NCBI GenBank assembly: GCA_017438635.1
Contig: JAFRUZ010000002.1
Location: 67,232-131,231 of the forward strand
Reading direction: 5' to 3'
Source of the DNA: Bacilli bacterium
Lineage (GTDB): Bacteria > Bacillota_I > Bacilli_A > RF39 > UBA660
Length of the DNA stretch: 64,000 nt
Part shown: positions 7,658-9,000 of the stretch, in pieces
Numbering within the stretch: position 1 is the first letter of the stretch
Layout of the letters: each line of letters starts with the position of its first letter
Made by a program: the position numbers and the translations under genes
Notes under the pieces: generated by a model
Seen by the model: the letters and a program-made list of their open reading frames with translations, nothing else
What the model was told of the DNA's origin: nothing
Databases searched by the model: none

Positions 7658-8266
7658 CTACTCTCCTTCATATTGGACAACTTGTTCTCCATTATACTGA
7701 GTTAATAATACATTTACAGGAATTTCTATAGTTGCATTCTCAGTTTTCCCCAATTCATAATCTTTATCATTATTAGCCTCAACATTAGGCCAACTAATTG
7801 TAGTTCTTATAGTATCCACTTGATCCAGTTCAATTTCATCAAGTGTAATAATCCCAGTATATGTACTAGGACCTGTTTGAATTATTCTTTTACCTGAAGT
7901 TTCTCTAACGCTAGAAACCGCAATAGAAGTCTCTGAATCTTCAAGATTGCTATAATCAAAAGTTATATCATACCTCACTGATACTTCTGTACCACTAGGA
8001 TCTATGGCAATATCAAAATACCCACCTAAACCTGGGGCTAATCTTCCAGTTTTAACATTTACATCTGAATCATAATTGATAGTATCTATATCAAAATCCA
8101 CTGCTTCAGATGTTACATCAACTTCATTAACTAAAATTGTCCATTGCCCAAGGCCATTTTGCACTACCCTTGTAGTATCAGATTGCAAAAGAGAAAAAGC
8201 ATATAATATACCAACGATTAAAACTATTCCAAGAACTAAACTAGATATATAAAATATTCTTTTCAT
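7658..8266 (-). CDS. exported TasA/camelysin-like small protein
   Basis: 202 aa. Signal/TM ISSLVLGIVLIVGILYAFSLL. RLAPGLGGYFDIAIDPSGTEVSVRYDITF resembles the PG-x-F-x-hydrophobic strand motif of the TasA/CalY family. Confidence 0.45.
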   Translation of the reverse strand: MKRIFYISSLVLGIVLIVGILYAFSLLQSDTTRVVQNGLGQWTILVNEVDVTSEAVDFDIDTINYDSDVNVKTGRLAPGLGGYFDIAIDPSGTEVSVRYDITFDYSNLEDSETSIAVSSVRETSGKRIIQTGPSTYTGIITLDEIELDQVDTIRTTISWPNVEANNDKDYELGKTENATIEIPVNVLLTQYNGEQVVQYEGE

Positions 8267-9000
8267 TATTCAGCTGATTCGTTTTCGTTTGACTTTTCTT
8301 CTTGTTCTTCAACTTTATTCTCTTGAATTTCTTCTTCGTTAGTTTGAACAACTTCTTCTTTTTCTACTTCTTTTTCTTTTTCTTCCACCACAACTGGTTT
8401 TTCTTCTTCTTCACTCTTTTCTACAGGTTTATCATCATCACCAGCAGGCTCTTCTTTATTAACTTCTTTTTCTTTTCCTTCGTCTTCAGGTCTTACAATT
8501 TCTTTAACAACAGCATAAATTTCGTAAAGGAAAATTACTGATATTGGAAATACTATCATTAACAAGAATCCCCATCTAGATTCTAAAACAGCTAATATAC
8601 CTCCAACATTGTTTATAACTTTTGCAGTATCTGCTTTACCAATTACATAATCACTAGAAAGTTCATAATTTCCAGTAATAGTATATGTAGTTTGAGTATC
8701 AGTTACTTTTTGAGTTTTTAAAACTTTACTGAAACTAACAGCAATTTGATTTTTATATGTATTATAGAAAAATATTTCATCATTAACTTTTATATCATCG
8801 TTTTTATTCTTTTTAACGATAATCAAAGTACCCTTTTTATAACTAGGTTCAAATTCATCATTTTTAACAATTATAAAAGACTTATCTCCAAACACAGAAA
8901 TCTTATAATCATTATAAGTTAACAAACATGCAGTTAAAAAAACTGCCACTAATAAATACACTGTTGCAAATATACCAATAATTATTCTTTTTATTTTCAT
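8266..9000 (-). CDS. SipW-like pseudo-peptidase with a long acidic C-terminal tail
   Basis: 244 aa with TM helices at both ends. The Ser-box position reads VKNDEFEPS and the His-box position reads VSFSKV. About 75 aa of E/K/V-rich tail follow TM2. First gene after the predicted promoter. Confidence 0.5.
   Translation of the reverse strand: MKIKRIIIGIFATVYLLVAVFLTACLLTYNDYKISVFGDKSFIIVKNDEFEPSYKKGTLIIVKKNKNDDIKVNDEIFFYNTYKNQIAVSFSKVLKTQKVTDTQTTYTITGNYELSSDYVIGKADTAKVINNVGGILAVLESRWGFLLMIVFPISVIFLYEIYAVVKEIVRPEDEGKEKEVNKEEPAGDDDKPVEKSEEEEKPVVVEEKEKEVEKEEVVQTNEEEIQENKVEEQEEKSNENESAE

Follow-up and report, generated by a model that had tools for sequence, protein, structure and literature searches.

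A pseudo-signal peptidase of endoplasmic reticulum-type descent in a putative fibre operon of small-genome Bacillota

To our knowledge, inactive relatives of signal peptidases have been known from a single system, SipA of the streptococcal sortase pili. In SipA of Streptococcus pyogenes (also LepA), the peptide cleft is kept, with Asp and Gly replacing the catalytic Ser and Lys, and the protein is indispensable for the polymerisation of pili (Young et al., 2014; PMC4049620). Here we describe a second, independent case of a pseudo-signal peptidase in a fibre operon, this one from the endoplasmic reticulum (ER)/archaeal-type branch of the family. It is encoded in a 64,000-nucleotide stretch of the genome of a Bacilli bacterium (contig JAFRUZ010000002.1, positions 67,232 to 131,231; hereafter the window), by an open reading frame (ORF) at 8266..9000 on the minus strand (244 aa), recognised from the ORF list and by SipW-family homology. 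An original prediction, made from the letters alone, had described its product as an apparently catalytically dead paralog of the signal peptidase SipW, and we refer to it as dead SipW, or paralog 1 where it has to be told from a second dead copy in the same array.

Two further described systems invite comparison. One is the tapA-sipW-tasA operon of Bacillus subtilis. Like the array in the window, it groups the gene of a dedicated SipW with those of a major subunit, whose signal peptide is of the SipW type, and of minor helper subunits, but it is devoid of an inactive peptidase, whereas the fibre-subunit operon described here encodes both a SipW and a dead paralog. The B. subtilis SipW, classified along with Sec11 in MEROPS family S26B (NCBIfam models TIGR02228 and NF046067), requires Ser47, His87 and Asp106, as the work of Tjalsma et al. 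(2000) is cited in PMC8767453. The other is the McrB-linked class named CoCoPALM by Bell et al. (2024; PMC11090510), who devote one sentence to signal-peptidase-family genes, in which active and inactive peptidases are not separated and gene order is not described. No statement on inactive peptidases was found in that paper or its supplements, and this sentence is the nearest to a description of inactive SipW paralogs that we found in the literature, which yielded no such description.

The homology of the 244-aa protein to ER-type signal peptidases is secure, because a profile-profile match, the top sequence match and the top fold matches all lead to these enzymes. From 74 collected relatives, 28 were aligned as a dead-family set (A1), and 13 SipWs from the same genome and from its relatives served as the active set (A2). 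In hhalign the dead family matches the active SipWs with a probability of 99.2% and an E value of 1.7e-19 over 167 columns, from the first transmembrane helix (TM1) through the second (TM2). The top match of the family profile among PDB sequences is SEC11A, and the Foldseek matches of the AlphaFold2 model are SEC11C (7p2q_A, E 1.2e-3), SEC11A (7p2p_A) and then S. pyogenes SipA (4n31, E 5.4e-3), each with a probability of 1.00. The SipW paralogy proposed from the sequence is thus borne out, and with the B. subtilis SipW and Sec11 the protein shares ancestry, a two-helix layout and a beta core. It differs from the active enzymes in scoring far under the cut-offs of both NCBIfam models, which it matches at full length (NF046067, E 2.5e-5, 23.9 bits against a cut-off of 190; TIGR02228, E 3.4e-4, 20.5 bits against 51.85), and a Pfam scan gave no hit at all for this ORF. 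The same holds for the annotation of the family as a whole, in which no Pfam model matches, the NCBIfam cut-offs are unmet and the few source names read 'hypothetical protein'; annotation pipelines should not label these proteins signal peptidase I.

The SipW layout read from the sequence, consisting of a transmembrane helix, a peptidase-sized domain and another transmembrane helix, is upheld by both hydropathy and structure prediction. Hydrophobic segments lie at about residues 6-28 and 142-166 (peaks at residues 1-30 and 138-166), and the AlphaFold2 model, built on a 55-sequence alignment, has helices at 2-27 and 142-169 with a beta-rich domain between them, and its predicted local distance difference test (pLDDT) scores range from 76 to 93 in the core but drop below 50 from residue 176 onward. 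TM1 (about residues 6-28; 8917..8985, minus strand, as for all further genes, segments and promoter elements of the array) is placed by hydropathy, the model helix and conservation, is preceded by a basic MKIKR and ends in a conserved T23/C25/L26/N30 motif. The peptidase-like beta domain (residues 29-141; 8578..8916), delimited by model strands and alignments, would be extracytoplasmic, and TM2 (residues 142-169; 8494..8577), supported by hydropathy and the model, carries an LESRWGF...P motif at its outer mouth that is common to the dead family and to the active SipWs of the same clade. Conservation around TM2 is high in an alignment of 225 relatives, with S141 at 96%, G144 at 92% and P152 at 96%. 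The positive-inside rule and the analogy to SipW predict a Nin-Cin topology, with both termini cytoplasmic and the beta domain outside. The strings quoted in the original prediction are all present in the protein, with NDEFEP at residues 47-52, VSFSKV at 88-93, GGILAVLESRWGFLL at 133-147 and EDEGKEKEV... from residue 172.

As to the catalytic residues, the loss of Ser and His is supported by three independent alignments (the SEC11A profile alignment, hhalign, and an hmmalign alignment of the 225 relatives), and it extends to the catalytic Asp. The boxes fall where they had been placed by eye, with the His register at F90, one residue beside S91. In the hhalign register, SGSMSP stands over NDEFEP, with active Ser56 at E49, Met57 at F50 and Pro59 at P52, and the HMMER alignment of the family profile with human SEC11A sets SGSMEP over NDEFEP in the same register. 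The vestigial Ser box, N47-D48-E49-F50-E51-P52 (8845..8862), places E49 at the nucleophile position on both of these alignments, and the vestigial His box, V88-S89-F90-S91-K92-V93 (8722..8739), has F90, which hhalign aligns with active His92, or the adjoining S91 at the His position. Active Asp107 of the GD box corresponds to N111, and Asp113 lies inside a seven-residue deletion. Expressed in B. subtilis numbering, Ser47, His87 and Asp106 are represented by E49, F90/S91 and N111, with the stretch of the second Asp deleted.

Among the 225 relatives, the nucleophile column holds Glu in 54, Asp in 38, a gap in 38, Ser in 21, Asn in 21 and Thr in 17, and the His column is occupied by Gly, Ser or Ala, or, one position before, by Tyr, Leu, Val or Ile; a single protein has Ser and His together at the catalytic columns. 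A search of all columns of these relatives for a Ser/His dyad shifted from its expected place, an objection that the original prediction had itself raised, or for a Ser/Lys dyad, found none (maximum His 7%, maximum Lys 69%), the sole strongly conserved Ser being S141 at the outer mouth of TM2. One deep member still has ATGSMEPV as its Ser box, with no His, which looks like a relic of the ancestral motif. A same-locus control is provided by the loci of relatives, whose ORFs were classed with three profiles, one each for the dead family, the active SipWs and the subunit encoded downstream, giving 84 dead-type ORFs from 80 species genomes, 82 of them with downstream sequence, and 74 positional SipW orthologues. 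The dead-type ORFs have His at either candidate column in 0/84 and Ser in 5/84, and their first-Asp column holds Asp in 35/84, versus 74/74 in the neighbouring SipWs. The latter, encoded two genes downstream, have retained Ser in 72/74 (the two exceptions are ORF calls starting at an internal Met), and His and both Asp residues in 74/74.

The likeness to SipA extends to the signal peptidase fold (SipA, PDB 4n31, being the third-best fold match), to the loss of catalytic residues, to encoding in a surface-fibre operon and to an acidic residue at the nucleophile site, Asp in SipA and Glu here. The two proteins differ, however, in descent, in architecture and in setting. SipA is of P-type descent (Ser/Lys, S26A) and has a single N-terminal anchor, whereas dead SipW is of ER-type descent (Ser/His/Asp, S26B) by sequence, fold and tree, and has two transmembrane helices. 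SipA works with sortase-built covalent pili, whereas the neighbours of dead SipW are subunits with SipW-type signal peptides; no sortase family was detected among the called genes of loci L008, L010, L026 and L027 or among the five window proteins scanned, a survey that covered part of the locus genes.

Dead SipW is not an isolated curiosity. A profile search of 1.84 billion representatives (50% identity) returned 3376 matches at E <= 1e-3, 693 at <= 1e-10 and 109 at <= 1e-30. At least 145 species-representative genomes encode a relative, and 80 loci were taken for analysis. The genomes are all uncultured metagenome-assembled genomes, and their record titles mostly point to the gut of humans, chickens, rabbits or ruminants. 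Their labels include Bacilli, Clostridia, Tenericutes/Mycoplasmatota, Erysipelotrichaceae, 'Clostridium sp. CAG' and the like, and a few that read Bacteroidota or Spirochaetota seem to result from faulty binning. In a sample of 299 genomes of the phylum, the dead-family profile retrieved mostly active SipWs (E 1e-6 to 1e-15), which were separated from dead copies by comparing scores against both profiles. In a tree of 35 dead copies, of both paralog types, and 36 active SipWs, all dead copies lie on one side of a branch with a Shimodaira-Hasegawa-like approximate likelihood ratio test (SH-aLRT) value of 99.6. The ratio of nonsynonymous to synonymous substitution rates (dN/dS) for the core of the protein is 0.135, at a synonymous divergence (dS) of 0.41, against the L026 orthologue (85% identical) and 0.112 against that of L027, and the core is thus under strong purifying selection. 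Because the dead clade is single and well supported and its core dN/dS is low, the data indicate one origin followed by long retention without decay, in agreement with the proposal that an inactive copy has been retained.

The gene order around dead SipW is strongly conserved. Dead SipW, a p202-like gene, an active SipW and a p209-like gene follow each other in 73 of the 82 cases with downstream sequence, and the gene next to dead SipW is p202-like in 77/82 and p324-like in 5/82. Most junctions overlap or are shorter than 10 nucleotides, and in the window the p202 gene (7658..8266), encoding an exported subunit, overlaps the stop of dead SipW by 1 nucleotide. The p202 protein, likely a partner or substrate of dead SipW, has a SipW-cognate signal junction (consensus YAxFxSE), no Pfam hit, and no match in a sequence-profile search against the PDB. 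Its AlphaFold2 model comprises a signal helix, a disordered stretch and then a beta sandwich, which weakly matches FimG (E 1.2e-3), the subunit of the TasA fibre (8aur, E 9e-3), the bundling pilin of Pyrobaculum (7ueg, E 1.1e-2) and archaeal cannulae in the PDB, all of them fibres built by donor-strand complementation.

On balance we favour a role for dead SipW as a non-cutting, subunit-holding assembly factor, by analogy an ER-type counterpart of streptococcal SipA. Dead SipW would bind, without cutting, the signal-peptide or N-terminal region of a fibre subunit at the membrane, most likely that of p202, the product of the next gene, and would hold or orient it for the neighbouring active SipW and for the growing fibre, which is probably TasA-like and built by donor-strand exchange. 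The originally proposed holding, chaperone or platform function fits the fixed and often overlapping synteny with an exported subunit and the precedent of SipA. The most conserved residues (T23, L26, N30, G133, S141, G144 and P152) cluster in or next to the two helices, suggesting that contacts with a partner, either the signal peptide or the active SipW, are made within or at the surface of the membrane. Several points weigh against this assignment. Confidence in the p202 model is medium (pLDDT 70.8), the matches of that model to fibre proteins are weak (E about 1e-3 to 1e-2), the template-modelling (TM) scores of the Foldseek matches of dead SipW itself are modest (0.44-0.53 on the target), the synteny fits a partnership with the active SipW equally well as one with p202, and, for SipA, binding to pilin peptides in vitro could not be shown (PMC4049620).

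The alternative that survives best is that dead SipW partners or regulates the active SipW without any catalysis of its own, contacting it through shared helices and altering its substrate choice or timing, or competing for precursors, with no chaperoning of subunits. The active SipW is located two genes away in 73/82 arrays, the motif G-x-[IL]-x-x-[FL]-x-S-[KR]-x-G-[WF]...P at the mouth of TM2 is common to both, along with features of TM1, and the dead family is most strongly conserved in its helices, but the tightest coupling, by overlapping genes, is to a subunit gene and not to SipW, and the module headed by dead paralog 2 (p324-p322-McrB) is present without an adjacent active SipW both in the window and in genome G085; such a partnership seems rather unlikely.

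Further alternatives involve the C-terminal tail. The polyacidic tail of about 75 residues noticed in the sequence is confirmed, spanning residues 170-244 (8269..8493), with 29 Glu and 4 Asp (33 acidic residues), 11 Lys and 1 Arg (12 basic) and a net charge of -21; by its composition and pLDDT below 50 it is predicted to be disordered, and by topology it would be cytoplasmic. Against the orthologues in L026 and L027, the tail has dN/dS of 0.39 and 0.75 with 15-16 gap columns. Among 209 relatives with a complete core, 10 or fewer residues follow TM2 in 121 and more than 30 in 66, and the composition of these extensions differs, with acidic E/K/P, basic T/K and Q/P/T/V types. The acidic tail is a lineage-specific, fast-evolving extension, not a feature of the family, and would serve at most as an accessory element for docking or spacing. 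Two associations of the tail were considered and not accepted. Acidic 40-residue stretches are present in 24/828 ORFs of this genome (28% GC), and with three of the 24 in SipW loci, the idea that they are special to fibre loci comes down to a weak enrichment at best. In the set made up of the 80 loci (L028-L107), the window, L008, L010, L026 and L027, tails of at least 40 residues occur in 20/55 loci with an McrB-like module versus 0/19 without, a linkage that is statistically unsupported, as about four independent changes account for it on the tree and a paired test is powerless here, and that we retain as a lead only.

These data bear on a possible function as a transmembrane coupler or signalling protein, whose ectodomain would sense the state of the fibre or its subunits and whose TM2 and tail would relay it to cytoplasmic partners, e.g., the McrB/McrC-like GTPase, or to gene expression. 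There is a precedent of sorts, as B. subtilis SipW is reportedly bifunctional, with its C-terminal 20 cytoplasmic residues needed for switching on matrix genes (Terra et al., 2012, as reported in PMC8767453), a regulatory role independent of peptidase activity of which the proposed coupling would be a specialised form, and the long tails are confined to McrB-carrying loci, the window operon being among those with an McrB-like module. However, the link between tail and McrB fails a phylogenetically paired test, most family members are nearly tailless, the tail sequence is poorly constrained and rich in indels, acidic low-complexity stretches are present in 24/828 ORFs of this genome, and similar tails are carried by the active SipWs P0278 and P0335; a coupling function therefore seems improbable.

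A more elaborate form of the subunit-holding model can also be imagined, in which dead SipW would be a membrane platform for donor-strand fibre assembly in single-membrane bacteria, acting with two sites in the manner of an usher. The vestigial cleft would hold the uncleaved signal-peptide/donor-strand region of the subunit encoded by the adjacent gene and pass this region to the fibre as the active SipW cuts, and in the long-tail lineages coupling to the McrB/McrC-like GTPase would let cytoplasmic hydrolysis gate fibre growth. We regard this as a speculative scheme, improbable in its entirety.

The possibility that dead SipW is still an enzyme, using other residues, such as the acidic residue at the old nucleophile site, for proteolysis or another reaction on the subunits, is very improbable. 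It could appeal to E49 at the Ser position, where acidic residues are the commonest, and to the high conservation of D74, Y79 and N30, but the position-49 column is variable and often gapped, D74 belongs to a structural GD motif common to the active SipWs, no His, Lys or Cys is conserved in the ectodomain among the 225 relatives, and in SipA the analogous Asp and a Lys were mutated without effect (PMC4049620). Finally, a decaying, functionless copy amounting to an annotation-level pseudogene, as the loss of all catalytic residues and the low-complexity tail might suggest, can be practically discounted, since an unbroken reading frame is found here and in the 84 copies of the 80 species genomes, the core dN/dS is 0.11-0.14, the family is an old, monophyletic one whose synteny is conserved, and ribosome-binding site and promoter are conserved.

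Dead SipW offers a handle on the membrane assembly of TasA-like, sortase-independent fibres in small-genome gut bacteria. Downstream of p202, the active SipW (6392..7645), with SGSMSP, THRV and GD...D motifs, is fused to two CnaB domains (Pfam Cna_B, 3.3e-42) and scores 70.4 bits in TIGR02228, over the cut-off. Active SipWs of this clade are also extended in other ways, with the two CnaB domains following TM2 in the window protein, long acidic C-terminal tails in the above P0278 and P0335, and 60 additional aa, acidic in character, at the N-terminus of the SipW encoded just past the left edge of the window (locus L003 of the same genome, C6:65681-66427). Next come p209 (5759..6388), a second small exported subunit and the conserved fourth gene of the module, and p385 (4482..5639), which bears a SipW-type signal peptide (GTATFAWFTANK) and is the putative major subunit, assigned by synteny and by TIGR04088, whose cut-off it clears narrowly (19.2 bits versus 19). 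None of the window subunits matches the Pfam TasA/camelysin family.

The second dead SipW (paralog 2; 3855..4370) brings the SipW-family genes within the window array to three. It is a protein of 171 aa with a short tail, 36% identical to paralog 1 (E 3e-33), with neither the Ser nor the His, and it belongs to the same clade in the tree. It stands at the beginning of a module of p324, p322 and a membrane-anchored McrB-like GTPase, and it occupies the same position in G085, L026 and L027. In G085, whose genome belongs to the same family, about 15 kb separate the halves of the array, both of which start with a dead paralog of their own; paralog 2 in the window is therefore the head of the McrB-linked module.

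This module (p324, p322 and the McrB-like gene; 338..3850) is delineated by its ORFs and is assigned to CoCoPALM. The McrB-like 513-aa ORF (338-1879) has a transmembrane segment and a GISGTGKT motif, and is 65-66% identical to orthologues that precede DUF2357 (McrC N-terminal) genes. The likeness to CoCoPALM, in the membrane-anchored McrB-like GTPase, its DUF2357 (McrC-like) partner and the SipW-family genes in the array, is based on these transmembrane, motif and neighbourhood features, and the present data bear on the role of signal-peptidase-family genes in that class. Beyond p209, arrays continue with a p385-like subunit, with p324-p322-McrB-like-DUF2357, or with both, the last being the case in the window, L026 and L027. 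Unlike in CoCoPALM, however, the dead-SipW module occurs with no McrB-like gene within 6 kb in 19 of 74 informative loci, and likewise in L008.

The claim that dead SipW is the first gene of its operon holds in the window but not family-wide. Here, a terminator-like hairpin (9102-9082) lies upstream of the gene, followed by a TG-extended promoter-like TTGAAT-17-TATACT (9047-9019) and a ribosome-binding site AGGTGG (9007-9012), the two elements spanning 9007..9047 and being conserved in L026 and L027. Across the family, a co-directional gene precedes dead SipW in 40/76 loci, the preceding genes often being a giant gene and then a gene for about 500 aa. In L008 (787-9953) and in many of L028-L107, all lacking the McrB-like module, the two co-directional genes ahead of dead SipW encode a giant repeat-rich protein (2532 aa in L008, with GG/GGN repeats) and a coiled-coil-like protein of about 500 aa; in these loci the fibre machinery may act on behalf of a giant adhesin.

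The region upstream of the window operon is taken up by a prophage of about 34.9 kb (about 9130-44032), inserted in the 3' end of a tRNA-Pro(TGG) gene and flanked by the 16-nucleotide direct repeat CCTGTCTTCCCGACCA (9114-9129 and 44033-44048). The prophage adjoins the promoter of the fibre operon and leaves it intact. In L026, which has no prophage, the tRNA-Arg and tRNA-Pro genes form an intact pair located about 200 nucleotides upstream of the dead SipW gene.

The genome of the window is very small (G000; 0.90 Mb in 18 contigs, 28% GC, 80% complete) and encodes four ER-type SipWs above the TIGR02228 cut-off, the two dead paralogs and one P-type signal peptidase, spread over at least three fibre-like loci (C6, C9 and C10). 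Additional SipW-like ORFs are found 5'-ward of the core module in L046 (4083), L079 (4149) and L104 (4559), which their scores assign to the active family although Ser, His or both are missing, with, for example, ENEMAP in place of SGSMEP as the Ser box, and catalytic loss may have occurred more than once in these loci. Beside the operon in L026 (7850-9593) and L027 (3796-5537), in synteny with about 44-50 kb of the window, genes for SpoIIIAH, GerE-type and Germane-domain proteins are present; the genomes of these relatives are about 1 Mb, L008 carries SpoIVA, and these reduced gut Bacillota may still sporulate.

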